64,000 nucleotides of DNA from Marsupella aquatica (lineage: Eukaryota > Plantae > Marchantiophyta), in NCBI GenBank assembly GCA_973895155.1, contig OZ316895.1:16906170-16970169 (forward strand), read 5' to 3'. Position numbers and translations under genes: made by a program. Position 1 is the first letter of the stretch. Every line of letters starts with the position of its first letter. This document shows, one piece after another, positions 10,260 through 48,319 of this stretch. Under the pieces are notes generated by a model. That model was not told the DNA's origin. It was given only the letters and a program-made list of their open reading frames with translations, and ran no database searches.

Positions 10260-10680
10260 ATGTGTTCAGCAAAGATGTGACTCTGTGTAGAGGTTAACTC
10301 AGTCTTGGGTTGAACTATGGTTAGGATGTTAACTAGGGTTAGAGTAAACCCTAGTTGAAGAGATTGATCCTTATCTCTTCAACTTGTATGTGGTATGAGA
10401 ACACATACAAGAGAGTTCTCAAGAGAGAACATAGGGATATAGCAAGAGATGAGAGCTTGAAGAGATGAGAGCTATGGTGATGCTTGAGTACACACATAAC
10501 CGCTAATAAAGCTTGGTCTTCCAGTGGACGTAGCCAACCTTGAGGCGAACCACGTAACTATTGAGCACGTGCATGTTTGGAGTGTTTTTCCTGATCTGAT
10601 TTCTCCCCACACTCTGCAACAACATGCACATGTGATATCCAAAGAACAAGTAGTCACCATCCATGATTGTGGAACACACA
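10260..10680 (+). mobile_element. LTR-like remnant (boundaries uncertain)
   Basis: AATAAA followed by CCAGTGGACGTAGCC..GAACCACGTAA, a motif commonly seen in plant LTRs; no TSD confirmed. Confidence 0.4.
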
Positions 10681-12843
10681 AAAGCCTTACTTCACTTTAG
10701 GCGTGTTAGCTATACCAAGTGTCTGCATCACAAGCACTGACTCCCCATCTCTCAAGTGGCTCTATAACTATGAACTTGAGTTCCTCTTCCACAAACAAAC
10801 ACTCTTTGGATATATAGTGTGCAGCACGGCTAACCTAACCAAGTTTGCGATTACAGTTAGTTTAACTAAATTTACAGTTGAATGTACATCTAAACCTAAG
10901 CAAAAATGTGTAACACTATGAAGGGAGAGCACAATGCAATCAGGTCCACCTTTCCTGTTTAGTTCCATTGCAAGAATTAACTAAGTGAACAGTGGTTAGG
11001 CGGGGAAGGGGCCGCTTTTATATGGGTGGGTGTGGGTAAACAGCATATTAACCACATTGGGGGGTTTTCACTTGCTTATCAAACGATTAAGATGACAACT
11101 ACATGATTTTCTCTACTAAATCGTTTGTATCGTGTACGGGGTACGACGAAGGGACGCTATTTGGATTATTCTCACACCAAGAATGAGTAGTTTAGTTTCC
11201 GCTCTCGGAAATGTTTTGATCAAGTCTACCAACTACTCCACCCCACAGCTTTTGATCAAGTCCTGCCAACTACTCTCTTCCCATTTCCACTCACGGTCAT
11301 CCAAAGAGTGTTGTCACCACCCCTACTCACAAGGCCGACCCAACCATGCAAGTTTCTTCAAATCATACAAGGGAGAACACAACTACGGAAAAGGAAGAGG
11401 GAGAGGAATCACACAAAAGAAATCCATCAAGTAAAATGTCCAGATTCATATCTCTTGGTGAAAGTGATACACATTGCATGAGTAACCCGGCCTCCTGCCG
11501 TTGCCCAACTCTTGCCTCACCGGACAATGAGTATGGCTTCCACCTCACTACTCTGAACACACTCTCAAGCTCCTAATGCTATCCGCTATCCTTCCCTTCT
11601 AACTTCAAAGTGAATTCCCCCTACACTACTCCGGGGCTCTCCCCCTAAATACCACTGAACCCCAAACACCCAAGCACCCAACAGCACTTGGATGCCGCCA
11701 CTTTCTCCTAGCGGCGCCGCCTAAAATCCTATCACCAACAGGTAAATGTCAACTAAACCCTAGTGGTATGCGGCACACACATATCCCTAAACCCTACCTA
11801 ACCAAGGGGCCGACGGTGTCTTCGACGGTGCGCCACAAAATCACTCCGTAAACCGCGAAAATACAAGGTACCCCACAATTGCCAAAACTTGGTGCCACTC
11901 TGATTGCACCTCTGAGCACATCCCTAGGTAGCCCTGTTCCTCCTGATCATGAATCCCCAAACCGCTCCCAAAATAGATATTGGACGACCAACTTATGACT
12001 GTTTTAGTATCCCGTACTGACCAACTTTGCGGGGCTCTAACTTTCTCATCCTGGCTCCGTTTGAGGAGCGCCGCCTCTTGTTGGAATCCGCTCTGCGAGC
12101 TCTTTCTAACGAGCCTGTGAGTGCCCACTTTCGAAAATTTTCAAAATCAAGAGGTCATACGACCAAGTCCGTACGACCACCCTAGTCCTCCTCCTCATGA
12201 CTCACGGTACCATGGCTTGAGCCCCGAGAGTTGGCCTCCTCATCACTCTCATCTGGAGTGAATACCACTCCGCTAAACAAGGACTCACTTGAGTCCACCA
12301 CCTCCTATCCTATCTATCTACCTTGCCTACCAGCCTCAATCCTCCTGATCGTCACCACTGGTCCGTGAAGAGAGCCCCTATAATTGTCAAAACTAAAATT
12401 TTCTTAGAATTCACTTCTGAAAACATATCTGAGGAACCCTCCTCTTCCTCATCACGGCTTGGTAAACGGTGCACAAAACGGAGGTCAAACGGCCAAGATA
12501 TGATCGTTTAAGTTTTTATGGGGCACCGTCTCCCTCCGTTTCGTCCGTACAACACCAGGGGGCCCCGGCTTTGCAAAACATGGATCACGGTTCCTCATAT
12601 GTGCTGCTACCTCCTCCTTCCCTTGCAAAACCGGGATCTCCTGTAGTACGGACGTCCGTACGGCCTCAAAAACCCCAGTATTCTCAAAAAACGTGATCTG
12701 TTGTATCTCCCCCGTCTTAGCTCCGTTTTGGCTGTGTAACACATCGTTGGATTTATCTCGGCGAGCTCTTTCCAACAAGCCCATAGAATCCTGATTTTGA
12801 GATGGCCAAAAAACTAATGTTCGTACAACCAAGGTCTGTACAC

Positions 12844-13451
12844 TATCGTGCGCATACACATCGCTACACAACATACATCGCTTGTCACACATATCCAAGC
12901 ATAGTCACAATCTAACGACACAAACCTAAGAGAATGATCTACAAATAGAACCCATGTCCATACATGCCCAAAACCCACAATAATCTTCTTCAATAGTGCA
13001 AATCAAACAACGATCGATGCTAATCCAACAACGATCCCATCTGAGGCGATCACACATGTATGACAAGCCCAACGCACCTTGTGCTTCAAGGAATCCATGT
13101 TACATGCACACAACCTGGTCAGCCACACCATAGCCACCAAGCCATGCTCAAAGGCTCAACATTGAAAGATGAGGCCTTTGAGCCAACACAAGGGGATCGA
13201 TAACTATCCCTCACACCAACTCAAACTAAACATAGTGCTCATGTAGCACACATACAAAACCTCTATACCTAGATAGTATGATATACTTTACTACCACTCT
13301 AAATGGTGTGACGGCTGTCGTGCGCATACACATCGCTACACAACATACATCGCTTGTCACACATATCCAAGCATAGTCACAATCTAACGACACAAACCTA
13401 AGAGAATGATCTACAAATGGAACCCATGTCCATACATGCCCAAAACCCACA
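12844..13451 (-). repeat. 3' terminal repeat block A-B-A (A = 136 bp, B = ~333 bp)
   Basis: The two A copies (12844-12979, 13316-13451) differ at 2 positions; B (12981-13313) differs from 22994-23329 by ~10 substitutions and 1 indel (hand count). Confidence 0.92.
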
Positions 13452-13462
13452 ATCGCCCCCCT
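13452..13462 (-). other. Polypurine tract
   Basis: Minus strand reads AGGGGGGCGA-T immediately before the TGTGGG start of the inner A repeat. Confidence 0.75.
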
Positions 13463-13626
13463 AGCTGGAAGTGAGGTCCCCTAACTCTAGCTAGCCATGA
13501 GTTCTACAAGGTTGATATACACCTTTTTAGGTGTGAAGATCAGGAGGCCGGGTGCAAGTGAGCCCCATCGATCACCTACCTGCAATCTATATCTTCCATG
13601 AGAACACAAATGATAACTAGTCGGCA

Positions 13627-15860
13627 TCACCGACATTGAGGACACAACCATGATCCACTAGGAATCATGTGCAAGGGTGGTGTCAAACACGACACGTGCC
13701 ATCCTCTAGAACACCGATCACAAATCAACATAGTAGCTGCTCCCTGAACAGACCCACACAACATACACTTCAAGCCAGCACGAACATGTGCCAAACTTGG
13801 ATCCACAGTACCATCAATGTTTGGAAGATGACATGGCGCACAATTACGCACATGATCCTTCCAAACCATACCATCACGTCTTTCCAATATAAGGACTCCA
13901 GAAGGCAATATTTCACGCACACGTAAGATTGTCCGCTCTGCGGTCACATCAAGCGTCGTTGGTGCTGTCTGTTGCAAATAAACATAATCGCCAGGATGAA
14001 ATCTTCTAATCCTCGTGCGATAACCTCCTCCACGAATAGTAGCATACCGTAAAGTATCACGATGTTGGGCAATAGCAAGGTTGTCAAAGGCCATGGGCAT
14101 GACTCTCTCAAAAACTTGTGCCCTCTCTGAACAAACCTTGACCCAAACATTTGAATCATCCAAATCCACAACAGTTGCAACATCACGACGAATAGCCGTT
14201 GGCAAATCTGGCTCTCTACCATAGAGCAAGAAATAAGGTGAGAAGGATGCAAGTGATGCTTGTCGACTAAAACGGTAGCCCATAGCTAACCAAGGTAGTT
14301 GGAGATCCCAGTCTCCCAAATGACCAACCTGCAAGCCATACTTACGCAATCCTCTCTTCATAGTTTGTACAACTCTCTCTGCCAATCCATCTGCCTCAGG
14401 ATGATCGCGAGAAGTAGTACAATGATCAATCAGAGCTTGCTCACACAAACCCTCAAAATCTCCACGGAATTTGGTGCCCTGATCAGTCAACACCTCAGCT
14501 GGTGCTCCAAAGTGACTGAGTACTCGATCCAAAAATGTGGTAGCCACTCCTCCACTAGCTTTATCTGGCAATGCCACTAGTTCAATCCACTTGGAGAAGT
14601 GCTCCACCATAACCAAAACATACCGATTGTGACGTTGGGTAAGAGGCAATGGACCAGCAAAGTCCAAACTCCATCGATATCCCAAACCCATGATCGGTAG
14701 CGGATGCAACTGGGGAGTGGGAGCATTGAACGATGCTCGCACTCGATCACAAACCACACACTTAGCTATCAATTGTTGGACATCAGTGTGCATACCACGC
14801 CACCAATATTGTATCTGCAGCAAGCTGTAAGTGCGCTTTACACCAAAGTGCCCTAACTCTTTGTGCGCATGTCGCACCAAATGTACTCGTTGTGACGGTT
14901 TTGGTACAACCAACACCTTTCCATCACGTAGTACCCTCAAAAGATGGTTTCCTTCCCATCTAAATCTCTTGGCTCTTTGTAGAACCCTATCACGCTCCTT
15001 AGCATCAACATTGCCACCAATGGAGCCAACACGCAAATATTCCAACACTCTCACATCGTTGTGAATATCTTGCTGTCCAAAAACTACATCACCAACATCC
15101 ATATCGGAAGACTCATCATCTACTCTATCCAATGAAGTAGAGTCTACATATCCACTACATACTGGCACCCAACAAAGGAAAGCAGACGCATGCCATCTCG
15201 ACACCATCTCCTTATCCGTCTTATCATGCCATCGGGCTCCAGTCTCATCCTCTTGACTGGTACATGGATTGCGGTTCAACCCATCCGCATCCAAATTCAC
15301 TTTTCCAAGTCTATGCACAACCTGAAAATCATACTCCTGCAACAACAATGTCCATCGTGCAAGCTTGCCTCTAAGCTTGTCAGACTCCATTAACCACTTG
15401 AGAGGTTGATGATCAGTGATCAAGGTGAACAAATTACCAAACAAATAGCAACGGAAATGTGCCACAGCCCACACTGCTGCCAAACACTCTCCCTCATAAG
15501 AGCTATACTTAGCCTCTGCTGAATTGTTGGATCTACTGGCATACGCCACAACAAACTCATTCCCCTCATCATCCTTCTGAGTCAACACTGCTCCAAGTCC
15601 TACTCCACTCCAATCAGTGTGAAGCTGAAATGGTTGCCCTGAAATGGGTCTTCTCAAAATAGGTGTTGACGCCAGTCTTTCCTTCAACTCCTGGAAAGCA
15701 TGCTCCTGGTCGTCTCCCCAAATCCACTCCTGATCCAACTTAGTGAGTATAGTTAAAGGTTTAGCAAGCTAGTTAAATCCTTTAACATACCTCCTATAGT
15801 AGTTCGCCAATCCCAAGAATGCACGAACTCTGCTCACATCAGTAGGACGAGGAATCTGTG
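13627..15860 (-). pseudogene. pol: pol 3' part: RT connection, RNase H, integrase (HHCC + DDE) and C-terminal PHD finger
   Basis: FQLHTDWSGVGLGAVL..YASR..YEGECLAAVWAV..TDHQPL (RNase H); HKELGH..CVVC; SLDFAGP..TDQG..GLAER (DDE core); CMLC..CDRCSRGWHVSC..WLCPQC (Cys4-His-Cys3). One stop at ~15769 and a frameshift at ~15860. Confidence 0.93.
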
Positions 15861-16756
15861 TTAGTAATGGCCTCCATCTTAGTCTGTTGCACACCCAATC
15901 CTCCTGGGTAGATAGTGTGGCCCAAATACTCAATCTTTTCTTGAAAGAACTTACACTTGCCGGGATGGAGCTTCAATCCATGTTCCCTCAATCTCTCAAA
16001 CACAATCTGCAAATGTCTCTGATGTTCTTCCACAGTAGAAGAATAAACCAAAATATCATCAATATAACATCTGACAAAATCCAAACCTGCAAGGATTCGA
16101 TCCATGACTCTCTAGAACTCAACTGGTGCATTCTTCAACCCAAATGGTAAGAAGAACCACTGATACAAATGATCTTTCCCATAAGAACCAATCCCCCAGA
16201 ATGCTGTCTTGGACCTGTTAGAATGCCTAATTGGCAACTGATGGTACCCCGCTCTGAGGTCCAACAAACTAAAAATCCTTGCATGCCCCACTGCATCAAA
16301 GATCTCCTCCGGTGTGGGCATGGCATATCGATCAGATTTTGTTTGACAATTAATAGGCCGGTAATCACCGCACATTCGCCTATCCGTGTAATTGCCATGC
16401 ACATCCTTCTTGGCTGGCATCACTGTGGCAGATGCATACTCTCCGTATGAAATCTCCACCAAACCAGCTTCCAACAAATCCTGAGTTCTACTCCGGATCA
16501 ATGCCCTCTCCATATCACTATATCGATATGGTCGTCGAAAGATTGGCACATCACTAGCCAATTCAATCTGAATACCAGGGTCCTTCAATGTTCCCAAATC
16601 CTTCATGCTAAATGCAGAATAATTCCAGTAACTCTTCAAGAATTGATACATTCGACGTCTCTCACCCCCTGTCAACTTAGGGCCAATTTGTGGCTCCCAA
16701 CTCTCCATCAAAGCTGTGATGTCTTCCTTTGGGGTTGAAGAGATAGTCGGTGGTTG
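15861..16756 (-). pseudogene. pol: Reverse transcriptase domain (Ty3/Gypsy type)
   Basis: RRPYRYS, RMCGDYRPIN, LDLRAGYHQ, LPFGLKNAP..F*RVMD, YIDDILVYS, KLHPGKCKF..YLGH; premature TAG at 16112. Confidence 0.93.
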
Positions 16757-16909
16757 CTATTTAGCAACAATTTGAGCAGTCCCAACCTGCTCAACAATCT
16801 GTCCTGCCATAGGTCTATGGACTGTCTGCTCGCCCCCAACTATGGTCGCTATTGTCTCAGTAGACCGCAAGCTCACCAATGGACGATCAGTAACACCAAA
16901 AGAGCACAT

Positions 16910-19030
16910 CCGCAATTGTTCAGCTAATCCCAAGCTGATAATCCAAGTCAAGCAATTCAAATTGTGGTATAGCCGGAAGAATTAAAAGTGACACTTTTCA
17001 CTTAAAGACCAAGGTTTCGATCCCTTTAAGAACAAAATAGGAATGGATTGAATGATTGTAACTGTTTTGAAGACTTAAGAGTATCACTCAACCAAATCTT
17101 CAGACAAAAGAGAAACAAATGGATAAACTAACAAAATGAACAGAAAAGATTAATTCCCAAGTCATGGATTATGGAAAAGCTTTTAGAACCAAGGTCCAAT
17201 GGATTGAATCTCCACTGCCACTCCTTCAAAAAGGATTCTGGTCTTATTGTGTTAACAAGATTGCAACAAATCTCGCCTCAATTGCTCTTCTCCATCACCA
17301 TGAAAATATAAACAGAAAGGATAAATGCTCACCAACACCAAAGTAGCTTTCTGGTGACCGATACAATGATACTCACTAAAATGCCGTCAACATGGATAGA
17401 ACTTCGGCGATACGCAACTCCGATCTATCACTAGTGGGTATGCCAAAGTAAGGGTAACGGTACTAACTATTCTGAAATCAGAATCTTGCTCCTTTTTATC
17501 CACATTATCATTGAATCCTTAGCGATTCTTGACCCACAAGCAATCCTAATTTGAATTCATATGATCTTGGAAATTTGTAATGAAACACTCAGGCACCAAC
17601 AGGAATAAATTCATTACATCACAAAGGAAGTGTTTTACTTCATTCATAAATCATTCTCGAAAGCAATGATTACAAAGGAAGGAGGGAAACTTGCAAAAGT
17701 TTGCAATACTGAATACAAGCTTCACTGAAAAACAAAAAGGAAAACGATAATCTTATAGGTCTAAGTGGAGCATAAAAAGGGGAAATGAAAAGTCATGCCT
17801 TTTCAAAACTTAGAAAAAAAAGGTAATAAAAATTGAGTACTAAACTAAGGTAGAAAAAGATCACTAAATAACTAGGGTAAATGGGTAACAAAAATCTGTC
17901 TTCGAACTTCCGCCGAGTATCGTCCTTCATAAGTTTGGTCTCCATGGGACACCTCTCAGAAGCGTCCTTCATAAGTATTGTCAGCAAGGTAAAGTTGGGC
18001 ATTTGGGTACCAAAATGCAATTAATTTGTGAACTTTGCATCTTATTTCCATCTTCCATTGATTTTGCGAAAAATTCAGGTGTCACACAAATCCATGGCTT
18101 GACCAAGGACTTGGCAGCGTGAACTCTCTGACACAGAGGCAACCGCAGTAGTGCCAGTCAAAAATCCCATAGCACGCTCTCTTTCATCAGCAGTAGGTTC
18201 CACTAACTGCTGTAGAGTTGTATCCCAGACAAGTCCAGGCCCACCTGCTCTGAATGCATATGAAACAGAATGACTCACAAAAGTGGGTAATGCACAACGT
18301 GGGCGACCAACTACATTGACCACTGCCAATGGAGGTTTGTCAGGCTAGGTCACACCTTGTGCACGACGCCCTGGATCCAAAATATCATCCACCACCAAGG
18401 CTGTTGAGTGAGGAATGCTATCAAATGCTCGCTTCAACACCTCACAAGGTAACAAATTAGTCCACCACAAGCGTGGACGATGTGCACAAGAACCCACACG
18501 TGCAGCATCCAATAACACAGCAGGTCCAATCCAAGACTTAACCTGATGAACGCTGGCAACAAGTTGATGACGATCATCACCCAATAATGGCACATTCTCC
18601 AAAATGTAGGCAGGGGAATGTGTCTAATGCAACTGAAGATGACGCAACACCCGTAACATCTCCCAAAACAATGCAGATCTTGGATCATGAAGTCCATGTC
18701 CAACTCCAGCTCTAGATTGAACCTGACATGGCCAACCCGCAATCACCAAATCAATGGGGCCAACGCGATCCAAATGATCCACCCCCAACAAGGAAATATC
18801 AACTGGCAATGCATGTTGATAACCACGAACGGCATCCACTGGCAACAATTGTGGATAACGTTCAACCAACAATGCCACATGACGTAATGAGACTCTACGT
18901 GCTGTCTCATCAGTCTCCACATACAAATAACGGTGCACAGTCCGAATGCCGGCTTGAAGAATGGCAGCCAATCCAGTGCTAATTCCACCAAATAAATCCA
19001 ACAAACAAATACCCTCATGTGGATATTGCC
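16910..19030 (-). pseudogene. C5 cytosine DNA methyltransferase domain inside pol (split by the solo LTR, with premature stops)
   Basis: Motif I LLDLFGGIS; motif II YVETD; motif IV IDLVIAGWPCQ (catalytic PC); motif VI YILENV; motif VIII AHRPRLWWTN; motifs IX/X ERERAMGF..TT...RCQVLGQAMDL-NCL. All lie in one frame that continues into RT. Confidence 0.9.
16963..18086. mobile_element. Solo LTR of an unrelated family, nested in the methyltransferase domain
   Basis: 1124 bp with TGTG...CACA termini and a 5-bp TSD CAAAT (16958-16962, 18087-18091); removing it restores the reading frame GQAMDL|NCLTWII. Confidence 0.9.
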
Positions 19031-19059
19031 ATGCAATAGGAGTAGTATCCAGTGGTGAA

Positions 19060-20248
19060 GAGTCACTGGTCCATTTGCAGTTGACTGCTCTGCTCCTGAT
19101 TGCGGTGTAAAAGCATGACGCCATGCATCATGTATCAATCGGGCCGCACTTTGTGGCAAGGCCTGTCCAGTACCCCATACTGGTGTCACAACACTATCAA
19201 TGGGCAATCCATGCATCAAGTGTTCCTCATGTGTCTCCTCCACCATAGGAACATTTGCTGCATGTGCGTTACCCTCAATCAAATCATCAGCTCCAGTAAT
19301 CAAACTACTAAATGTTGCCAAAGATAATGGTGCAGATTTGGGGCCTCCAACAGGTCCACTAAATTGCACTGGCAATTGGCTCAATCGAGCATCTCCACAT
19401 TGCCAATCGGGTCGGTACGACATCGATTCATTCCAAAAATCAAGAACAAATCCCATAGGATAGAGAACTGTACATCCCACCAAGACATCATATGACTCAG
19501 CCTTAGTCAAAATAGCTTGAGCCTGGATCCATGAGTTATCCTTTAAATGATCCTCCTGAATCCTAAGTTCAAGTGCTCGTCGAGTGATATGCTGTGTGGG
19601 TGTAGGTCCTCCCAATGAAGTCTGAATGGGAAAGGGACACTCCTCCAAATCATCATAACGCAATCCCAATCCTCTTATCGCAGACTTACCCAACATCAAG
19701 GGCTGAGCACCAGTATCTAGTAACACTCGCTCTGGCTGGTATATTGCTCCAGAAGGCCCAACTAATCGGAAGATACCACTCCGATTATCCAATGATATGA
19801 TGCTAGGTTTAAACCTAGTCCTCTCATAAGCAGGGCGCGCTGGTAAATCTATCAACCTTGCTGCTGCTGCATGCCATGTCTCACCACTAGAAATAGGTGG
19901 ATTCAACTCCACTGCTTCAAAATTGGGCGTTGCTTCTGCATGCGAAGCAACAGCTGGAGTGTCCTCGCATAATGTGGCCACCAATCTAAACACCTCTGCT
20001 GGACTAACTCCCAATGTCAACATATCCGTAGTTGAAAATAATGGCGTGCGCACTATAGTAGTGGCCGCCCCCAACAGGGTACTTGTCATCCCTGTCACAA
20101 CATCACTTGAATCCGCCAACTTACCCCCACCTGGGTTAGTCCAAACCGGATTCATAGAGGTAGTTTGAACTGCCTCTAACAATGTAAATGATTGGGGAAG
20201 CTTCGTTTGACGACAAATATCCCCTCTCTGAGGATCCAACTCTACCAC
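19060..20248 (-). pseudogene. Aspartic protease region of pol
   Basis: RVLLDTGAQPLML (DTG active site) and YDVLVG; same frame as gag. Confidence 0.8.
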
Positions 20249-21631
20249 TGCTCCTCTAGGCTCAAGGGCTTTTGTTGCTCCTCAAGTTAAAGCTGCTGAT
20301 GCATCCACATGCGCAGTACCACACATAAATCCCATGGTGGCAAGATCTCCATCAGCTCCATAAGAGGTTGAAGCTCCATAGGATGTAGAAGCCCCATCAC
20401 TAGCAGTAGGTCTAACTTGAGAACTAGCCATTGCAGCTAGTTGTTGCTCCAATTGAGCAATCTTTGCATCCTTAGGATCTGTGGTAACGGTAGGAGCAAC
20501 ATCACCTCCCTGTCTTCCTACATGTGGTATGCCTCGACCACGTCCACCACCTCTACCTCCTCTTCCCTGATCATACGCACGTGGTCCTTCCCGTCGTAGT
20601 TTAGGATGAAGTACAAAACACCTATCTTTGGTGTGTCCAGCAACTCCACAATGATCACATTGTCATTGATCAGGTGTAGATGCCCCTCCTTGCCCCCTAT
20701 TATCTGGGCAATATCTTTGTGCATGATCCCCACCACAAGTCCAACATCCTGATTGTTGTCCAGCATAAGAAGGCACACGTCTCTGACTAGTAGATTCCTG
20801 TGTTGTAGGCTTCTCTCTCTGGCTCTTACGTGCAGTAGGTTGCAGTGTGGGCGTCGATGCAACCTTTGGTGCTTCCTTGGAAAATCCGGAAGTCACCACC
20901 TTCTCATTCACCATATTGAGCTCAATGCGCTCAGCAAGTGCAAAAACTATAGCCAATGTGGGATCTGAATCCCTCAGTAGAGTGGCATCTGTCACTCTAC
21001 GACGCAACTCCCTATCTAGAATTGCATACCAAAATTGGACCGCTTGGGCCTCTATCACTCCTTGTGTGACCGTAATCAACCTTCGCATACGAGTGTATGC
21101 CTCACGTAGGCTCTCTCCAGTCTTGCGTTGGAACTCCTGAAGACCCTTCAACTTATCGGTTCTCACACCCTGGTAGTTCTGCTTCAATACTTGAAAGAAC
21201 TTCATCACAGGGTTAAATGTTGGCGCAACTCCACTCCCAGCCACAATCACACCGGTAGGAGTAGCGGTGGATGCTGATGGAGTGCCATTCTGGCTAGTGC
21301 TGCTAGAAGAAGCCGCAGTTGTAGCAATGGGTTGGGAAACCACACTTGTGCCATAAGTGATGGACACATAGTTTGGTGACCAATGCTGTCTCCATGCCTC
21401 AATATCCACTAAATGAGCCTTTCAAAACTCATGGTAGTCATCCATGGGTGGCCCCTCCAAATGCTGAAACAACCCTTTCCAAGCCATGAAAAGTGTAAAC
21501 AATGTGGCATTACGCATTATCTGCATATCATACCACGTATCAAACTCTTGGATGAAATTATCCAAATCAATCGTGCCAACTGCACCAGAGTATCTCCTCG
21601 GTCCTTTCGTTGCCCCATACATCTCCTCCAT
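20249..21631 (-). pseudogene. gag: gag with two zinc knuckles and an RGG tract (premature stops)
   Basis: RYSG..DLDNFIQEFDTW; FQRKTGESLREAYTRMRRL (retrotransposon gag); CWTCGGDHAQRYC; CDHCGVAGHTKDRC; GRGGRGGGRGRG. Start codon is tentative. Confidence 0.82.
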
Positions 21632-21876
21632 ATCCCACAACAATGGAACAGTCACTTGATGTCGAGGAGAAGTGGCTACTAAGTCCTCGTCAGAATCACT
21701 ATCTGAAACCCCACTTGTGACCACTAACAATGTCGTCGGCCAAAATTGCACTCCACTCCAAGTGAAACCAGATCGTCGTCCCTCGGGTAACCCCGTATCA
21801 CTAGAAGACTCCGTGATGACCAATTTTCCCTAAATGGTCACCATCAACTCACCACTATCAATAATCAACCAATTGG

Positions 21877-22356
21877 CGGAACGGTGTTCCGCGGATACCC
21901 ATCACTCAATCGCGGAACGGTGTTCCGTAATGCACTACCACCAATCTCCAAGACAATTGACGGAATGGTGTTCCGTAAACTGCTTCGTTGTGGGATAGTG
22001 TTCCGCAACCCTCCATCACCAATAGCCAAGCTAATTGGCGGAATAGTATTCCATGAGCTGCCTAGTAGTTGCGGGACAATGTTCCGCAACCAACCGTTCT
22101 TCACAATGCAGACGAGATGTGTAATGGGGCAGACCAATCTTCAATATGCACCCACGACGGAACAGTGTTCCGTGGAAGACCAATCTTCCCAAAATTATCA
22201 CAACAAAATGGTAATCTGTACCCGATCATTCTCCAATATGCACTCACGAAGGAATAGTATTCTGTGGAAGACCAATCTTCCCAAAACTACCACAACGGAA
22301 CAGTGTTCCGTAGTCAACCAATCTCCAATATGCCCTCTCAACGGAACAGTGTTCCG
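21877..22356. repeat. Array of ten 15-bp pseudo-palindromes, consensus CGGAACAGTGTTCCG, in the retroelement 5' leader
   Basis: Copies start at 21877, 21913, 21961, 21991, 22039, 22072, 22158, 22250, 22296 and 22342. Confidence 0.85.
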
Positions 22357-22993
22357 TGGAAGACCTTCACAACCTTGTTGTTGCGAAAACCCCGCCGCAA
22401 TTCCCGGACAAAGCACTGTTCACTAACTTTGTTATTTTCCTTGTGCCCTAGGTCGCCGCCACACCTCGCCTCTCCGCGGTGCGCTATGTCACCGCAGGCA
22501 ATGCAATTCGCCAACATTCAACGTCACTTTCTTTGAAGGAATGCACTGTCCGTCAACATCAAACTTGATGAATCTCAAATCCGCGACATACAACTTCAAC
22601 GATCAACTCCCGATTGGGACCATCCCCGAACTAGAATCACAAACAATCACAAGTCTGACCGACTTGCCTTCACAAAACCGCAGAAAATACTCTTAGCAAT
22701 CCGTGCACAATAGTCGATGGCAACTTCCAATCATCGACCGGACACTCAGTCTTCCAAAATGCTGCAATGTCGATCGATGCGAACCGCAACTCCAAATGCG
22801 CAACTCAACAACTCAAAGCTCCGCATTCACTCAAGCTTTCTCAACACCAACTTGGAACAGATCGAGATACCAGCGATCCATTCAACAACAAAACCCTATC
22901 CGAGATACCACGAATCGTCAACAACAAAACCACAACAAAATCGAACTTCTGTTTGCACAATCCGTACATCAGAATTTGAAGCTGATCTTTCAA

Positions 22994-23329
22994 TGTAATC
23001 TTCTTCAATAGTGCAAATCAAACAACAATCAATGCTAATCCAACAACGATCCCATCTGAGGCGATCACACATGTATGTCAAGCCCAACGCACCTTGTGTT
23101 TCAAGGAATCCACGTTACATGCACACAACCTGGTCAGCCACACCATAGCCACCAAGCTCATGCTCAAAGGCTCAATATTGAAAGATGAGGCCTTTGAGCC
23201 AACACAAGGGGATCGATAACTACCCCTCACACCAACTCAAACTAAACATAGTGCTCATGTAGCACACATACAAAATCTCTATACCTAGATAGTACGATAT
23301 ACTTTACTACCACTCTAAATGGTGTGACA
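22994..23329 (-). repeat. 5' terminal repeat B (336 bp, TG...CA)
   Basis: Direct repeat of 12981-13313, followed by the TSD ACAC. Confidence 0.92.
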
Positions 23330-23455
23330 ACACACGTTGAAAGCAAGCACAATAGGGAAAGGGTTTAGGGTTTAGGAATGGGTGGGAACCTCACAAGTGA
23401 GAATAGAGAAAAAGGGGAGGAAGAAAGTGTGGGGGCCCCTTCTAGTAATGTGTTT

Positions 23456-23578
23456 TTCTACGGAGTGCCCCTTCTACGGATGTATTCTTCTACGGAGTGT
23501 TCTTCTACGAAGTGCCCCTTCTACGGAGTGCCCCTTCTACGGATGTGTTCTTCTACGGAGTGCCCCTTCTACGGAGTG
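23456..23578. repeat. Minisatellite of TTCTACGGAGTGCCCC-like units, preceded by telomere-like GGGTTTAGGGTTTAGG at 23361-23376
   Basis: About 8 units of 14-17 bp sharing the TTCTACGG(A) core. Confidence 0.8.
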
Positions 23579-25327
23579 GGGTAGGAAAATTGTGGGAAAC
23601 TACGGATTGAGGAAGGGAAATCTCCACGATTGTCCTTTTACGGGCGTTGAGGTCCCTCAAGATGTCACTGTTTTATATAGACCTAAAATCAACTAGAGAA
23701 CCTCAGTTTCGCATGGGGCTCATTGAGGATTCAAAATGAATCCAAACATGACCATGTTTGGAATAGTACTAGCACAGCAACGTCTGTTTTAAGTTTCAAT
23801 GTTTTCTATATTTTGGTCATTCTTCTTGTTTTGCGCCTTACGTGGAGTCTCCGACCAGTGTTAGGTATTGCTCTTAGTCTTGTGACTCATGAGATAACCA
23901 TAGTTAGGCTAACTCGGGTTAGGACTTAGCTAAGGTTAGCAGTATGTAGTGCTATTGTGTATATTGCCAGGGCTGGTGCCAGCCCCTGATGGAACTTAGG
24001 CTCATTGTTACGGAGCTAGTTGAGAGATAGGGAGAGCTTGCGCTGTGGATGCTTGGTATGGCCGGTCGACCTAGAGTGCAGTAAAGCTCTTGTGTGTTCC
24101 CGTGGACGTAGCCTCATGTGGAGGTGAACCATGTATCTCTCTGTGTTGACTCTTGTGCGTTGGATGGTTCATGGGCTTGCAGTTGCGAATGTCATTTATG
24201 CTTAACAACCAGCCCCCACCCCTCCAAGATGCCCACACATTGGCCTCCAAGTCCTTGGGCTGCCTTTTGGCCTCCTTGTACCCCCTCAATGGCTCCATTG
24301 TCATCCATCACCGCCCAACACCCCTCTCAACTCCAGCCTCCAATTGTCACATCAATTTATTAGAACGAACAAAAACTAAAAAAATTTAAAATCCAAACAC
24401 TTTTGCTACACCTACTTGTCTTTCTACTTATATATGCAATTATAAGTTATCACTAAGTTACTACCGGATTTGGGGCCTTGTCACAGGGGTCAAGACATTC
24501 AAGGAATTTGACTAAAGACCTTAAAACCAATATGTTAATAAATCACTAACCTCATCAAAATGTATGCAATAAACCATCTGTACACTGCTTACAATCACTA
24601 GTAGAAAAAGGGGTAGATTATGACCCAACTACTTAGGACTCAAATGACGCCAATAATTTGCTAGGACTCCAAATGGAATGGAGTCATTAATTTACAACAC
24701 TCCCTTAATGACTAATGTCAAAGGAGTATAGCTAAGTCAAGAAGAATTCAACTTTTTAAGATACAAAATAAATAATTTTTCCTATATTGAAGGAGATTTA
24801 AGACTTAGGATTAGGCTGACAATCTTAGATTGTCTTGGTAGGCAACTAAACAGCAGGTGGCAGGATAGACTGAAGAGGAACAATAAGGAACCGGATTGGT
24901 ATGCTTTGGGGGCCATTATGATATGGCTTTTTATGGTGTGTTTCTTTGTTGGCCGCTTCGCCCTCAGCAATGGCGGCCTCTTTTTCTTTGCTTGGGTTGT
25001 TTTTGCCCCCTTGTGTGGTTTTGAGGCCTTGCCCTTAAAAAAAGATTTAAGACTAAAATACATCGTAGGTGATGAGGGGATCTATGTAGTAGTGAGAAAC
25101 CCGAGCCCACAAAACCCATCCCACCCACACATATACCCTACACACCCCTATGTGTGGAGGGGGGATTGGGGCCTGTCAAAGTACAACCATAAGAAAAGTT
25201 TTATGACCAAAGTTTGTTGGAATGTAAGATTCTTACAGGGCATGCATTTAGGTAGCCCATATTAAGGGGTTATCTCCTCACCATGAAAGAGTTTTAGTGT
25301 AGGGTAACCCATCCCCAAGAGGGGGTA

Positions 25328-27392
25328 ATGAGTGGTGGACCTTGCCACGTAGTGCCCTCACCGATCCCGGCACCCATGCCTAAGTGCCCCCAGTGCCCAA
25401 ACGCCTCTACAAAATACTTCAAGCAAGCAACCTAGTGCCCCCTTGCACTACCAACGACCCCTCCCATACGAAGCCGCACTTGCTCTCCAACACCACCGCT
25501 ACTCAACGGTCTTCACAGTTTGCACAAGCAACCAAGCACCTTGGTAAGTAACCCTTTAGGATCTAGAACTCCCAAGTCTAGCATCCTAACTCAAGCTCAA
25601 CAGACATTGGTAAATAGGTCAGCGATAGATCCTCCCGATGCCATAAGCCGGAACAAGAACCCACGCCCATTGTTTGTCCAGAATAGTTCCTTCCTTGGGT
25701 GCGGCCCGGATTCCCCCTCGTACCTATCCATCACCAACTGACCTCCTTGACCCCAGGACATGCTCATGGCCCAAATAGCATAGCTTGTCCTAAAGCTTAT
25801 CCCAAGCTTGTCCCAACACGTTGGGACCAGAATGGCCCCGACTCTAGCAACCAACTCCCGGTTCTCGCCCCACTAATGGTCTAGGGGGCAAGCACCCTTG
25901 AAGCTCAACCTCCATGCCTACTTGGCCTTGCCTCCCCAATGCAAGCTCCCTTGGGTCCAGGCCCGGATAGGCCATCGGGGGAGGACTTAGCATGGGGAGA
26001 TTTGTGGGCAATGAGACATGGCACTAGCGAAGGCATGGCGCCAAGCTGGTGACACACACTAAGGACTTAGACTAGATGAGAGCTGGTCGGGTCAAGGAGA
26101 AAGGCGCCGGGCTCATGCAAGGTCAACCGTCCGAATGCCCAGACGGACTTTGAGTTCTGAGAGCTTGAGTGAGAGCTCCTCTCGGGCCCAAGGCCAATGG
26201 AGTTGACGCCATGGGCAATAAATGCTTGGGGCGCAAGTTATGGCCCGATCCGGGTTGGCCTGTTCGGGGGCCCCAAGTGGCAATGAGATCTAAGGGCCTA
26301 GGCATGAGCACTGGGTTGGCCCGATCACAGAAGGCTAAGGCACTCCGCTTGCGAACACCTAACAAGAAAGTTATGGGCGTTGTCAGTTGGTGGCGTGCCC
26401 AGACATGCGGGATAGGATCCGGGTTGTGGCCCAAAAAGTTGAGGACCAAAGTTGGTCCGGGGGTGGCAGGTCTCCAGAAGCATATATGAGGGGAGAAGGT
26501 GTCTCCCCTGGGGCTAAGGGCGAGCCGAAGTCGTGAGCTGCGACGGTCGCGACACTAAGGGAAAATGTTAAAATAAAAATGTCGATATCTTCCCAACGGG
26601 AAGTCCATTGGATGACTTCTTGGATGCGTTGGAAATCTCTCAAGGAGGGCTACGTCCTTCTGAGCTCAGCTGGGTCTAGGGGTGTCATGGGTTCTCAAGG
26701 TTTGTGGGTGTTAGCTAGCCCGTTTGCCAAATCCTACCAAAACAATGGCCAAACCGCGTTCAGTCTCCCAAGGGAGCTTGCGTTGGGGAGGCAAGGCCAA
26801 GTAGGTGTGGAGGTTGAGTTCCTAGGGTGCTTGGCCCCTAGACCATTAGTGAGGCGATCTTAAAGTTTGTTGCTAGAGTCGGGGCCATTCTGGTCCAGAC
26901 GTGTGGGGACAAGCTTGGGACAAGCTTTAGGACAAGCTACGCTATTTGGGCCATGAGCATGTCCTAGGGTCAGGGAGGTCAGTTGGTGATGGATAGGTAC
27001 GAGGGGGAATCCGGGCCGCGTCCAAGGAAGGAGCTATTCTGGACGAACAGTGGGCGTGGGTTCTAGTTTTGGCTTATGGCATCGGGAGGACCTATCGTTG
27101 ACCTACTTACCAATGTTTGTTGAGCTTGAGTTAGGATGCTAGACTTGGGGAGATCTAGATCCTGAAGGGTTACTTACCAAGACGCTTGGTTGCTTGTGCA
27201 AACAATGAGGACCGTTGAGTAGCGGTTGTGTTAGAGAGCAAGTGCAGCTTCGTATGGGAGTGGCCGCTGGTGGTGCAAGGGGCACTAGGTTGCTTGCTCA
27301 AGGTATCCCGTGGAGGCGTTCAGGCACCAGGGGCACTTAGGCGTGGGTGCCAAGATTGGTGAGGGCGCTGGGTGGCAAGGTCCACCACTCAT
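25328..27392. mobile_element. Foldback / long inverted repeat (~630-bp arms 25328-~25955 and ~26766-27392, ~810-bp spacer)
   Basis: ATGAGTGGTGGACCTTGCCAC... at the left end is the reverse complement of ...GTGGCAAGGTCCACCACTCAT at the right end; arms are colinear throughout and most differences are transitions; no TSD found. Confidence 0.8.
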
Positions 27393-34400: not shown

Positions 34401-37400
34401 TCACTTAACCAACGGTTGCCCTCCACGGAGGCCGACACCGGTGGCAAGAGTGCGGAGCCCTTTCACCAGAGATGAGGAATTACCCTGCGATGGAATCATC
34501 TTCGCGTTGGAGTGCACCAACCCATTGCCCTGAGATGGAATCACCTTCCCGTTGGAGTGCACCAACTTTGGAATGGACTTGGAGCTCATTAACTTTCCGG
34601 CATTCGAGCCATTCTCTAACGAATTGGCAGAGATAGTATTCTCTATGGGGCGAAACGGTAGACTTGGGCGAACGTAGAGCTGACGCGTTATCGGAGGACG
34701 CAGAGAAGCGAGTCTGCTGCCGATGTTAGTGGGGCACTCTGGCAGCGAACTTACGCGAATATCCTGCTCTAGCTCCTGTTCCACTGGTACTCCCGTATCC
34801 TGCAGATAAAAATTCAATGTGCAAAGCAAAGTGAGAATTGATGTAGTTAGTTTATTACAACATCTCCGAGCTTTCCAGATGATCATGATACATGACCGAA
34901 AATGCGCAAACACAAGAGTTAACGTAACTTACCCCCAGCATCAAAAAGATGAAATCTTCCTTCGCTGTCGGAACATGAGGTTGAATCTCTCTACGCAGAT
35001 CTGCGAGAGTTGCCCCCTTGGGAAGTTTGAGTACGCAAACCAACTTGCCGGTCGTGTCCTTGAAGGACTCCCACTTCACATACACGTCACATTGGCGATT
35101 GTAATCTTGAGCATTGTTGCTCCGGACATCATTCTCGTCCCTGTAGCTGTTAACCTCGCTGGGCTTTCTAACTGAGTATGCTGGAGACGCTGCTCCAGGA
35201 GAGAGCCCCGTGGAGCTTTCCGGAGTTCCTGGGAGAGTTGGGCCTTGCTCATTGGGCTTAGTAAATTGGAAGAGATTTCCTGTCCGGAATTTTCGATGCC
35301 TGGATGGGGAGTCCGATTTCTGAGGCGACGGCAAGACAGGAAGGAGTGGTGAGGACATGACCTCCGGGGAAACTGGGGATCTCAGGCGGTCCTGGAAGTT
35401 CCCTGTTGATCGGGAAGGAGTCCGAGCAGGGCTGTAGTATCCTTCCGCTTCTAGAGAAAGGTGACTCTGGTTGTCTCGCTCTCTAAAGGACGGACGAGGA
35501 GACTCTTTATAAGAAGGAACGGGAGATTCTCTATAAGAGGGAAGAGGAGAGGAGGGAACTGAAGGGAAAGGTGACATGGGTTCGCCAAGCGAGAAGTCTC
35601 TGAAGGAGTCTGATCGTAGGTTGTCTCTGAAGGAGTCCGATCGGAGGTTGTCTCGAAAGGAATCTGATCTGCTGTTGTCTATGAAAGAGTCTGACCGGAG
35701 GTTGGCAGCTGGATCCCGGTCCTCTCTGACAACAGGGCTCGCTGGAACACTTGGGGATGGTGACTCTCCGGTACGTGCTGCAATTTCCCTGCGATGACCA
35801 CAAAGGAGAAATATGTTTTCGATCCGTGCCTTCCGAGCTGAGACTGCTTCCATCACAGGAGATTCATCTCTTGTCTCGGAAATTTTGGGTTCCGACTTGT
35901 CTTCATACTCATTCACTTCCGAAAGGCTTGGACCAAGTCTTTGCAAGAAGGAATCCACAGGACTTCCTGATCTTAAAGAATTTACGGACCCCTCGGCATT
36001 CTTGAGAGTGGAAGTGGGGTGGGCTTCCTCCTCGTGCTTGACAACACTGTTAGTTCTATTCAACAAACCAGCTCCTGGCTCGCCAGCGGAAGAAAACTTC
36101 TCACGAAGCAAATTGCTCGGTAAAATGTTGTTGTATGGAATTTCCGAGGGAGTCTCAGAGCTGGAATGCTGCCAGTTGTTAGAACCCAATTTCAAATAAT
36201 GTGAACCATCACTGAGTCTTGGGCAGCTCATAGACGCTCTTTGTGCAGCCTCTTCCAGACTCTTCCTTGCTAGTCTTTCTAACTCCTCCTCTTTTTCTTC
36301 CACGATGATTGGGAGCCAACCTCTCCGGTGAAGTTTGGATTCACTCCAAGTTCCAATGCCCAGTGGATCCTTTTCAACCAGAAGAGCGAGCTCCGCCTGG
36401 TAATCGTTGATATCGCTCATCGACATTTGCTTGTCACCAGGCGTGGTACTGCTGATCTCGCTGTCAGTGTTCGTTTGGGGAGCATCTGGCAAGATAATGT
36501 CTTTGTTGTTCATGGCCTGCAGCTTACTGAACCAGCTCAAGTGACCATCTTCTAAACTGGGCTTCTTACTGCTCTCTTGATCCTGCTCTCTTGAGCCTTG
36601 CTCCTCGTTGACCTTGAGAAGTTCATGGAGCGTAGAAGGCTGCCACGTGATTGCTTTCAGTGCAGTATCCTGGCCAGTAGTGTGTCTCTTCTTCTCAGCA
36701 GTCTTAGGCGACGGGGCCTCCTGCCCAGCCTGTCGTTTCTTCTCAGATTTCTCAGCTTTCGGCGATGCAAATTGGTGATGAGGACTCTCCTTAGCCTTGC
36801 TCTCCAACCTACCGTTGGACGACTTCTTGGAGCTGTTCGAAGAATCGCCTCCCTTGAAGAAAGACAGGACAGAGGAAGAGAATTTCTTGTCTTTCTTCTC
36901 TTTCGGGCTGGGGCAGCTGCCGTTGCTGCTACCAAACCCATTGCTCTTGATTGAAAGAGGGCTGAGTCCCCTACCTTTTCCAGGTGACTCGACCTTGACA
37001 ATAGCTAAAGACGAATTGTGCTGCTTCACCGATCCCCACTCTGCTGACTCCGGATTACTCTCCAAATTAGAGAAGGAAATCCTCTTCAGCTGGTTAAGTT
37101 CAGCCTCGGCCTTGTCCGCCCGCAAACGATGGAATTCAGTCTCTTGCTCTTTCTGCTGAAGTTGTAGTTCCAGCTCCTCCAACTTTCTGTTCATATTCTC
37201 GTTCTGTAAATCAGCTTGCCTCCTATGTTCATGAAGTTGTAGCTCGGACGCATTTTGTCTCGTACTTAACTGGCTTTCCATCTCGTCTACTTTTCTACGC
37301 AAAGCTTTCACCTCTTTCGTTTGAACCTCTCTTTCCTTATCCGATTTCTCTTTGTCCCTTCGCAGTTTCAAAATGCATTGATCTTTTGCGCTATCCTTCG

Positions 37401-39020
37401 CATTCACTACGGCTAACTTTAGGAGCTCTTCCTCTGAGGCCTTCTCCCTTGCTGGGGAGTTGGGAAGCCGGACGATTCGCTTGGCCTTCGCACCATACTC
37501 GAACGTTCCTAGTGTCTTATACAGATCCTTGGGGCAGGGACTTGCACATAAAATCATCAACACCTTGGCATTTTTGTCTTCGAAAGATTCCTGTAATACG
37601 AATCATTTGCAGCAAAACAGGTTCAATTGCCAAAGAGCTCTGGGACAGCTTAGGGTGATGAATAAAAACCGGTGCCGTAATCGAACGAATAAAGCAATTG
37701 GCAAGAATGTGACCAACCTGGAGAATCATGGTAAGCTTGCTGTCTCTGTAAGGAATGTGATTCTCGCCGTTGGCGATGGCCTCGACCACTCGCTTAAGAG
37801 CTCCATTCCCTTGATTGATTTTTCCTGTCTGAGACACCAAGAAGTGATACGAGCGTTAACACCAAAACAACCAAATTATCAGGAGCAGCTGCAGCAAGCA
37901 CAAATAGGACGATTCTTGTCAAGGCCATTCATTACTGACCTGCATCTTCGATTCTGCTCCAATGCCGGCTTGTTCAATATTCTCAGAACCAGCCATGTCC
38001 ACCAAAACCAAACGCCCGTCGACGGCTGGGACCTCAAATGTGACCTGCGAAAACGAACTCACCGCATCAATGTCACGGAAATCTATTTCAACGCTGCGGC
38101 TTGGTCCAAACAACGCTGAATGTAGAGCAGATTTCTGTATGGTCTAGTCAGATGTCAGCTCACCACGCAATGGCTTCGAGAACTCCGGTCATTGCAGTTC
38201 GTACTCTTGACGACCCTTCGTTTCTCTACTTTCTGAATTTCCTTTAGCAATCTGTTAGGATCGTAGTCGTTTATGCAATTTGAATTGCGGACTTTTTTCC
38301 CTTTCACCTCAAGCTTCACCTGCAGATACCATCACCAGGGCAATCCAACGACGATCCATCCTTCAGCTTTCAGGATCATTATATAGCATGCAGAGGAACC
38401 ATCAACTTCAAGTAGGCTTTGTGGGGATTAACAACTTCACGTACCCTGTTCATCTGTCCTTTCATTGAACCGGGAGGATTGCTAGTCTGTGCTAGGAGGT
38501 CATAAATGTCCTCGTTGAATATTTCCCAGACCGTTGCTTTCACTTCTTGTCCACGGCCAGTCTCGTCCACTAAGCCATCTCCCATGATCTGGATGAGGGC
38601 GTGGTAAGCAACACCACGCTCAGTCCCGGAACCGAACATGGTGTGGCTCTTTCCTGCTCCCGTTGGGCCATACATCATGATCGTACATTTTCCTCCGAGC
38701 TTCACATCCTCCACTCGAGCTTCCGCGTACTTGAGGTAGAAGGCTTCTAGATTCTCATCCTCAGCTTTGGAAACACCATCCAGGGAAAATACTCGGTAAC
38801 CTTGCTGGTGTTCCTTACTCGTGATTCGCAAGTCTCGTCCATTAGGCAGCGCTTGGAGAACCGACGGCTGGCCTATGCCATCTGGATGATTTCGAATTCG
38901 GCCCACAACCTCCACTGGGTGAGTATCAACAGCAGGAGGCAAAGGTGCTGGAGTCGGAGTTGCCGAGACTGTTGACAAAAATGGCCCAATGCGGGGTGTC
39001 GAGGGTGTTCGTTCTGCCAT
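34401..39020 (-). CDS. Kinesin-10 family motor (PAKRP2/KINID1-like); ~6 exons: 39020-~38445, ~38320-~38165, ~38115-~37941, ~37828-~37718, ~37591-~34933, ~34800-34401
   Basis: HPVEVVGRIR; P-loop YGPTGAGKSHTM; switch I NDRSSRSHC; switch II LVDMAGSE; HIPYRDSKLT; LCASP..KTLGTFEYGAKAKRIVR; coiled coil; conserved C-terminal VYVKWES..ATLADLR. Inner exon limits are approximate. Confidence 0.9.
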
Positions 39021-46190: not shown

Positions 46191-47522
46191 CTACAAGAAA
46201 TTGCTATTTACTCCAGCTCTATACAATCTAATGGCATTGGGAGGCATCGCTGTTGACCCGTTTCCGTTTCCAATTCCATGCCCATTCCCATTTGCGTATC
46301 CGTTCACATCAACCCCTGTTTTGGCTGATATTTGAAACTCCTTCCCTGCTGGCACAAAAAAACTGTCACCTTTCTTCACCACGGAAGGGCGGCCTCCTTG
46401 AGAGAAAACGACCGTGCCCTTGCCATCCGAGACCAGGAAGATTGATGGCCCAGAGATGGCGGAAATATCTAATGAATCCCCACCCGGAACGGTTATCAAA
46501 TCGACCTCGAATTCCTCGAAAGGGGGAGAATACCGTCTGGTGAAGAGTGAAACGGGATACCCATCCAGCAGATCTGGCAACCCCTGCTCATAAGTTAGCA
46601 TGGACGAAAGAATTGCCGTGTCTCGGAACTTGGGTGTGAGCCCTGCCCGCACCACATTGTCCGATGTGGCCATGCATTCAACGCATTCCCCAGAGATATA
46701 TGCGTGGGGGACGTTGGCAGCTAAGTATACGGCCTCTCCAGGTTTCAATACAATGTGATTAAGAAACAGAGAGGCCAAAACGCCAACATCGTCGGGATAT
46801 TGCTTCTCCAGAATGAGGAGAAGCTCCTCCCTCGCTGAGAGCTTCCTCGAATCCTTCTCCTTTGTCAGTCGAGTAATCAGTGTGCGCACACTCTCCGCCA
46901 CTGTCTGCTTGTCGAGAGTCATTAGCGTTGTGAATGATCTCTGGAGTGCAGCCTGGGATTCGGTCGTGACTCTATCAGAGGGACTCAAATTGAGCAGCTG
47001 AGTAACGTCGCTCTCCTTGAGCACGTTGCGCAGTTCAGGAACGGCTTCCAAGACCAGCTTCAATTCCTCGGAACCCATGAAGCCACACAGAGCCTCGAAT
47101 TCGGTGAGGGCTAGAGCCATCTCCGGCTTGTGGTTGGCATCTTTGTAAACCTTCGGTTGCGTTTGGAACAATTCCTCCGCGAGCCGCTTGTCCGGGTGCG
47201 CCTGGATGGACAGCGCTTTGGCGATGGAGAGAACCTTGAAGAGGAACGGCAATTCCCCCCGCCATTTCTTCAGCACTGCTTCGCCCAGCGCGTCCGGGTT
47301 CTTCTGCAGCCACTCGTTGAGTAGAATGCCTTGCTCTGGGGAGCTCCCGTCCTCGAACAGGACCGATGGGGCGGACGGATGCGTCCCCATCCACAGCTCC
47401 GCGTACGGTTTGCCCTCATCGATCTCATTCCCGGATGAGAGAGTGTACAATCCCGCCACTGCACTGTCCTCTCCGATGCGCCCCCACTCATAATGCTGCA
47501 CCGCGCCTTTCACTCGCAACAT
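46191..47522 (-). CDS. PMI: Mannose-6-phosphate isomerase (type I PMI), single coding exon, ~443 aa
   Basis: VQHYEWG, PYAELWMGTHPS, LPFLFKVLSIAKALSIQAHPDK, YKDANHKPEMALALT, HAYISGECVECMATSDNVVRAGLTPK. First ATG at 47522; the ORF track starts at an upstream TTG. Confidence 0.95.
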   Translation of the reverse strand: MLRVKGAVQHYEWGRIGEDSAVAGLYTLSSGNEIDEGKPYAELWMGTHPSAPSVLFEDGSSPEQGILLNEWLQKNPDALGEAVLKKWRGELPFLFKVLSIAKALSIQAHPDKRLAEELFQTQPKVYKDANHKPEMALALTEFEALCGFMGSEELKLVLEAVPELRNVLKESDVTQLLNLSPSDRVTTESQAALQRSFTTLMTLDKQTVAESVRTLITRLTKEKDSRKLSAREELLLILEKQYPDDVGVLASLFLNHIVLKPGEAVYLAANVPHAYISGECVECMATSDNVVRAGLTPKFRDTAILSSMLTYEQGLPDLLDGYPVSLFTRRYSPPFEEFEVDLITVPGGDSLDISAISGPSIFLVSDGKGTVVFSQGGRPSVVKKGDSFFVPAGKEFQISAKTGVDVNGYANGNGHGIGNGNGSTAMPPNAIRLYRAGVNSNFL

Positions 47523-48319
47523 CGCACCGCCCAAGACACTTCCCTGTTGTTCGGCAGCAAGCAATTCCGCCAATGCACAACGTTTTCAGGACCGAACCAG
47601 AGACGACGACCGTGGAGCAAAACAAACATTCACAGAACCTGAACTCGTACACAGAACGGTCCATCCATCATGCGTGTTCATCAATTCGCTCCATGCTAAA
47701 GCTGATAAATGCTACTTCCAAGCAAAGGCACCGCGTCAGCCGTGACAGGCGGCCCAGATCGAGCAGAGAGCAGAGGCTGGATCACCATAGGACGCAAATT
47801 CGATCAAGAATGAGCTTCAATCACAAACCTTTCAGCAAACGTGCTCCGCGATCCGAAATGCTGCAAAACTCCGTCGCGCGGAGGAAGAAGGTCCTCTGTT
47901 TCGGTCAAGCGAATCAGCGAAAGAACGAGGTGCGATGCAATTCAGAGGTAAGGTCATGCGACGCCAGATTGGAAGCACAACACGGAGGAGGACGAGAATA
48001 ATGCCGCAGCAGCAGAGTCGAGGCCTTCCTGATGAGATGCAGCCACGCCTGCCTGCTTGCCTGCCTGCTTGCCTGCCTGCCTTTTGGCCCGGCTGGGTCG
48101 TTGCTTGCCGTGCGGGATCGCATGCGCAGCCCACCATAGCACCGCTTTTGGTCAATTGGGGCGGCATAGCTTCCACGATTCGCTCGTTCTCTTTCTCCTT
48201 TCGTTCGTGCTTGACAGTTTCGATTCGCATCGGTGGTCTGCTTCCAGTTGACACTTTTGGAAATCTCCATAAATGCTGCTGCCTTGCCTTTTTCAACGGC
48301 TGCCTAACTTAATTAGTAC

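Follow-up and report, generated by a model that had tools for sequence, protein, structure and literature searches.

Integrases are generally held to need DNA ends, and LTR circles to be dead ends or back-ups; circle-first integration was once proposed for retroviruses. In IS3/IS911 and IS30, an integrase-related DDE enzyme opens a circle at abutted ends 2–3 bp apart, these being DNA transposons that make the junction from their own ends. Split direct repeats mark the tyrosine-recombinase (YR) retroelements, TOC1 among them, which are modelled as integrating from a junction, not from cDNA ends; Ngaro, PAT and VIPER elements occur in only one orientation. Ngaro, PAT, VIPER and TATE carry their repeats in the order A...B-A-B (PMC6681497), and the integrases of HIV-1 and foamy virus can cleave the palindromic junction of a 2-LTR circle internally to leave CA-3′ ends (PMC4372172, PMC1905944, PMC1180852), the cut site being the end-to-end junction and the route a back-up (PMC4372172). 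Canonical Ty3/Gypsy elements (Ty3 7Q5B; Tf1/Sushi/Tcn1) encode PR-RT-RH-IN with an H2C2 and rve integrase, carry a PPT and a self-priming-type primer site, and insert with TG...CA ends and a short duplication (PMC6317226), all of which recur in the family described here. Finally, the legend to Fig. 4c of de Mendoza et al. (2018) gives KnitGypsy-Dnmt3 of Klebsormidium nitens DIRS-type repeats and Gypsy domains (PMC5890265).

The window analysed here, 64,000 nucleotides of the liverwort Marsupella aquatica (contig OZ316895.1, positions 16,906,170–16,970,169), contains a Gypsy-type element of 10,486 bp (~10.5 kb) on the minus strand at 12844–23329, between two copies of ACAC (12840–12843 and 23330–23333). 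In element orientation, comparison of the repeats gives B5 (333 bp, 22997–23329; the sole repeat at the 5′ end, starting TGTCAC), a primer-binding site (22985–22996), the internal region, a polypurine tract (PPT, 13454–13465, with a G-run at the same place in relatives), A1 (138 bp, 13316–13453; directly after the PPT and the presumptive start of U3), a GC dinucleotide, B3 (332 bp, 12982–13313; presumably the remaining U3, R and U5) and A2 (138 bp, 12844–12981), the 3′ end of the element, all on the minus strand. Between B5 and B3 there are 10 substitutions and 1 indel over 333 bp, and between A1 and A2 2 substitutions over 138 bp, divergences that are compatible with one age (Fisher p = 0.52); A pairs and B pairs diverge in step across 8 full copies.

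Four public runs from two studies provided contigs that are related to, not identical with, the window element. Nine contigs in each of two runs (X11 and X12) link the left flank straight to position 23330, possibly from paralogous sites, the flank itself being a high-depth repeat; because they make this join, ACAC is a true 4-bp duplication. The B...A-B-A split repeats and the ACAC duplication, both predicted from the letters of the window, are borne out by the mapped coordinates and these contigs, and the empty site that the original prediction proposed to look for was found. Among the contigs listed, at least three of run X10 have loose ends at 23329, weak evidence for the start of B. All four runs show the insertion target (12560–12843 and 23334–23600) as a repeat of high depth; it contains telomere-like GGGTTTA units and, at 23424–23594, a 16-bp tandem array. 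A 114-bp inverted similarity (72%) flanks the element on both sides (10671–10784 and 23991–24100).

The coding content follows the order PR-DNMT-RT-RH-DDE integrase-PHD, broken by stops, frameshifts and a 1124-bp insertion; the window copy is decayed and dead. Domain searches and alignment place RNase H, the integrase (H2C2, rve core, D-D-E) and a C-terminal PHD finger in one open frame (13627–15768, minus strand), with the reverse transcriptase, broken by stops and a frameshift, at 15842–16756 and a broken C5 cytosine methyltransferase domain at 16760–19127 (both minus strand). The latter is interrupted by the unrelated insertion (16963–18086), which has TG...CA ends and a 5-bp duplication (16958–16962 and 18087–18091) and is likely the solo LTR of an ordinary element. 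A minus-strand frame at 18746–20281 has a weak Pfam match to aspartic protease (E = 0.003, below the curated cut-off), with better matches in relatives L042 and L023, and the region at 20285–21829 (minus strand), in pieces and with two CCHC-like motifs, lacks a Pfam match and is putatively Gag-like by its position. The methyltransferase (PF00145) was detected in the window, L006, L023 and L049, and no match was found in the scanned frames of L042. A homolog search returned 419 matches, across which the integrase is conserved; among the 120 listed, the best named homologs are from Riccia, Calypogeia and Marchantia (57–75% identity), followed by Klebsormidium (42–51% identity), Closterium, Haematococcus and Volvox. 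Viral contigs contained no match to the element. Elsewhere, the window holds a ~630-bp inverted repeat (89%) with ~810 bp between its arms (25328–27392; a foldback or Mutator-like element) and two host genes, one with a type I phosphomannose isomerase frame (46191–47585) and one with a 915-aa frame weakly matching kinesin (34855–37602).

Relatives of the element were sought by scanning 14 of the 64 parts of a metagenome with an integrase alignment, which confirmed 285, and the best 80 loci were analysed; the family counts given here rest on these relatives in short-read metagenome contigs. At the 3′ end, 32 of the 80 loci (29 distinct insertions) carry A-B-A after the PPT and 25 (23 distinct insertions) a single A, while 23 were cut short, interrupted or too distant to be informative. 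None of the 80 is an ordinary copy with AB...AB LTRs, the finding that the original prediction had named as its refutation, and A precedes B in none of 16 distinct 5′ ends (window included; in 15 of them, over 500 bp of upstream sequence is available). Thirteen copies have both ends, nine of them B-internal-A-B-A and four B-internal-A. In these, the 4-bp duplication is exact in eight, has one mismatch in two and is absent from three, compared with agreement in 0 of 156 mismatched cross-pairs; duplication lengths of 3, 5 and 6 gave no consistent match. The shared B...A-B-A ends, 4-bp duplications and common breakpoint expected of other copies are thus seen family-wide. The A-B-A and single-A classes are scattered over the tree (11 changes versus a shuffled mean of 12.8), on which L052 and L070 sit on long branches and are uninformative as to placement. 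Three distant, GC-rich relatives (L055, L066 and L068) show no terminal repeats in the contig sequence examined; they carry further coding-like sequence beyond the PHD.

All 29 distinct A/B junctions conform to a 16-bp near-palindrome, CA(C/T)GACA-NN-TGTCA(T)G, with a spacer of exactly 2 nt in 29 of 29, and this palindrome is kept across four sequence subfamilies whose repeats otherwise differ. The insertion ends are its two halves (TGTC...GACA) minus the two spacer bases, so that the prediction of true ends at an internal palindromic CA-NN-TG with loss of the central bases holds across the family. In the window, the att-like palindrome, recognized from the junctions of relatives, lies at 13307–13322 on the minus strand with its spacer GC at 13314–13315. 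It reads GACA-GC-CGTC in element orientation and A2 ends in GATA in place of the family's GACA; relatives carry the canonical letters at both places, confirming the two transitions suspected at the internal junction and the left terminus. Palindrome variation is mostly C-to-T or G-to-A, a pattern that would fit methylation decay, which would also explain the GATA end. In all four runs, 25–38 contigs per run diverge from the reference where A ends and continue into dissimilar flanks, and other contigs link the B start back to the A end with six letters between; the junction letters are TAGCTG or TAGTTG, and loose ends finish GACAG or GACAGCTG. Four insertions end ~15 bp early at an upstream CGACA-like motif in A (L026:7221, L031:2320, L036:3945 and L057:3880/L076:4250), which may reflect cleavage at a cryptic site or slippage loss of one motif unit. 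At L020:2497–2506, AGC stands before the 5′ end, resembling the palindrome spacer, and there is no duplication; a retained overhang or a chimaeric contig is possible.

The ends set by reverse transcription lie elsewhere. The primer-binding site is not tRNA-like; it is complementary over 12 nt to a site in B (13159–13170, minus strand), the predicted self-primer at the RNA 5′ end, whose twin at 23175–23186 has one mismatch; at 23176, almost all of the contig depth carries the letter that matches. Complementarity between B and the bases after B5 extends over 12 nt in the window, 17 in L006, 15–16 in L022 and L064 and 11 in L027. The match differs in sequence among three subfamilies, and 0–2 of 1,000 shuffles reach such lengths for the 5 of 16 copies examined that were selected because their matches were longest; in several decayed copies, the match is only 6–8 nt. 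The minimum-energy RNA fold of the window 5′ leader, a copy with the mismatch, lacks the self-priming stem (z = −0.72), while that of L006 includes it, with z = −4.27, a value inflated by the choice of a stretch around the stem. From the complementarity, the primer site appears to be of the self-priming type, an arrangement known for Tf1/Sushi/Tcn1 elements (PMC6317226). In relatives, the ends defined by PPT and primer site read ATAC...CAAT or AGTT...TTTC rather than TG/CA, which strengthens the case that the integrase skips them. The conventional TG...CA LTR first proposed for the window is also not supported: its CA is part of the primer site, and the AT in front of the TG that follows the PPT is part of A. 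Likewise, the B/A joint has not lost a CA, as had been suggested, since that CA starts the 12-nt self-priming stretch; because it belongs to the primer-binding site, the end of B and the start of A meet exactly and bluntly at the window joint.

In the window, this joint (12975–12990, minus strand) has the B end abutting the A start at 12982/12981 and likely represents joined ends of linear cDNA; some run contigs bridge it (for example, X10 record 6 and X12 record 20). Among 25 scorable copies, leaving out three of a subfamily without a known B5 end, 13 have a joint of exact length and 12 carry indels, compared with ~0.5 expected from the A1/A2 background and with 0 of 28 at the A/B spacer (p = 2e-5). 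The joint lies in AT-rich, slippage-prone sequence, and the indel excess survives a 10-fold higher rate (p = 0.003). At the joint, L030 has lost 217 bp of B and L064 retains ~137 bp of 3′ internal sequence together with the PPT, while three close relatives in one clade have three different joints. The PPT/A and B/PBS borders, unlike the B/A joint, are constant. Such heterogeneity suggests that the joint is made anew in each round, as expected of freshly joined cDNA ends.

We consider it probable (roughly 60%) that copies start and end at the conserved palindrome within the LTR through joining of the cDNA ends and opening of the molecule at the palindrome by the DDE integrase. RNA would start in B5 and self-prime on the site after it, and PPT-aided reverse transcription would yield A-B-internal-A-B. 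To judge from the variable joints, the B end would then be joined to the A start in each round to form a 2-LTR circle or the equivalent nicked molecule. The form of the inserted ends suggests that each strand of GACA-NN-TGTC is nicked by the integrase after GACA, which would leave CA-3′ ends with 2-nt 5′ overhangs, the geometry of a processed retroviral end; strand transfer would produce the 4-bp duplication, and the inserted TGTC...GACA product is itself observed. Opening at the 5′ LTR would give B-internal-A-B-A, which keeps R at both ends and should still be able to replicate. The B-internal-A form may arise through 1-LTR circles, use of both palindromes or later A-A recombination, and would be a dead end.

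We infer the circle and all pre-insertion steps from inserted copies. Of the circle-based integration originally predicted, the ends at the internal palindrome stand, whereas the mirror product expected of the circle, B-A-B-internal-A, was not found among the two-ended copies (0 versus 9 B-internal-A-B-A, p = 0.002). Since the two palindromes of a symmetric 2-LTR circle are equal, both orientations would be expected equally often; to account for the missing mirror form, one has to suppose either a cis signal or an over-long intermediate that is not circular. Tandem 46/92-bp repeats occur in the 5′ leader (21868–22419) and are a candidate cis signal fixing the left end.

An over-long intermediate is central to the strongest competing explanation, which we regard as unlikely but deserving of real weight: no closed circle would form, and reverse transcriptase would jump from the B end to the A start, creating a linear or nicked molecule on which the integrase always takes the palindrome by the primer site as the left end and either downstream GACA as the right end. 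This would yield exactly the two classes seen, A-B-A (32 loci) and single A (25), scattered over the tree, and is compatible with the lack of a B-A-B form. Small indels and joints with AT micro-homology would likewise be expected from jumps between ends. However, the L030 deletion and the PPT retention in L064 look like end-joined circle junctions, of which large deletions and PPT retention are features in retroviruses, and the asymmetry would still require a cis signal.

The heterogeneity of the joint bears equally on a replication of Ngaro/PAT type, in which RNA would read through to A2, the existing B/A joint would template or splint the circle, and so be inherited, and the recombinase would have been replaced by a DDE integrase. 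The 13 joints of exact length fit such inheritance, and occurrence in one orientation only is a trait of Ngaro, PAT and VIPER as well. The split-repeat order is also the same (PMC6681497). Nevertheless, joint variants differ between close relatives, and the start of A and the end of B are precisely where the PPT and the self-priming site lie, as in copying of the LTR type; we find this explanation improbable.

Integration through the element's own DDE enzyme, as our preferred reading supposes, is in line with its coding content. The integrase is Ty3/foamy-like and, by alignment, has the D, D and E intact. The second D and the E are separated by 34 residues (D-X34-E) in all 100 homologs with a scorable motif, a further 20 of the 120 examined lacking one, and the one-residue gap relative to Ty3 integrase is visible in the alignment; this spacing may be a marker of the clade or have to do with internal cleavage. 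As predicted, a DDE integrase is present without a tyrosine recombinase: 84 frames (at least 85 aa in sense, at least 120 aa in antisense) of five decayed elements contained rve and protease and no YR. A tyrosine recombinase acting in trans on a circle, with the palindrome as its site, could be suspected from the split repeats and palindromic junctions, which typify YR retroelements. This is very improbable, as 4-bp duplications that vary, CA-3′ ends and the missing two central bases are DDE signatures and the integrase is conserved across the 419 homologs. Finally, that an ordinary LTR element was rearranged once or misassembled is negligible as an explanation given 29 distinct related insertions with A-B-A, A and B pairs that diverged together, contigs bridging the B/A joint and an existing empty site.

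The family thus combines features of several systems. Like Gypsy elements, it has the PR-RT-RH-IN order, a DDE integrase with a zinc finger, and a PPT and primer-binding site at the internal borders, and its TG...CA ends with a duplication in the 4–6 bp range are present but at the halves of the internal palindrome. In contrast to canonical Ty3/Gypsy elements, it lacks two complete direct LTRs with PPT/PBS-defined ends (0 of 16 5′ ends with A): there is no full LTR pair at the ends, the inserted ends lie inside U3, the PPT/PBS ends are not TG/CA, the D-E spacing is 34 instead of the usual 35, and a PHD takes the place of the chromodomain. It shares its repeat order with YR retroelements but has a DDE integrase and no YR, a 4-bp duplication, a PPT and a primer site. 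Unlike the HIV-1 and foamy virus junction, its palindrome is separate and genome-encoded with a 2-nt spacer, the end joint is sloppy and the route is apparently the only one. Unlike in IS3/IS911 and IS30, reverse transcription copies the junction along with the rest of U3.

KnitGypsy-Dnmt3 resembles the window element in joining a Gypsy pol and a C5 methyltransferase to DIRS-like split repeats (A-coding-B-A-B), and from sequence the two appear to be related. The accessible text on it contains nothing on ends, duplication, palindrome, priming, mechanism or PHD (PMC5890265), which are mapped here in apparently bryophyte copies. The original description of the integration route as new therefore holds in part: the repeat layout was already in the 2018 legend, whereas neither the palindrome nor the route was found in the literature searched, which comprised sources outside Repbase, subscription journals and figures, and the accessible part of a 2026 preprint (10.64898/2026.05.21.726589) has nothing on split repeats. 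Apparently, the architecture has been noted once before and the mechanism is undescribed. A broader proposal, to which we give slightly better than even odds, is that a bryophyte and green-algal Gypsy clade has dispensed with linear-end integration, cDNA-end joining being obligate and the D-X34-E integrase opening the circle by an IS911-like route at a dedicated att palindrome in U3 that looks as if already processed.

The layout has consequences for annotation. REXdb was built with LTR-FINDER, which required two LTRs with TG/CA (PMC6317226) and would consequently miss the split repeats described here. In early land plants, a large family of repeats is thus overlooked or wrongly delimited by LTR-finding pipelines. 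The DIRS/Ngaro split-repeat layout can arise with a DDE enzyme, and the integrase of this family is predicted to cleave double-stranded DNA internally at a defined 16-bp site. Because the family always inserts by way of an internal palindrome, it allows circle-first integration to be tested directly and, if our reading is true, would be a natural case of it.
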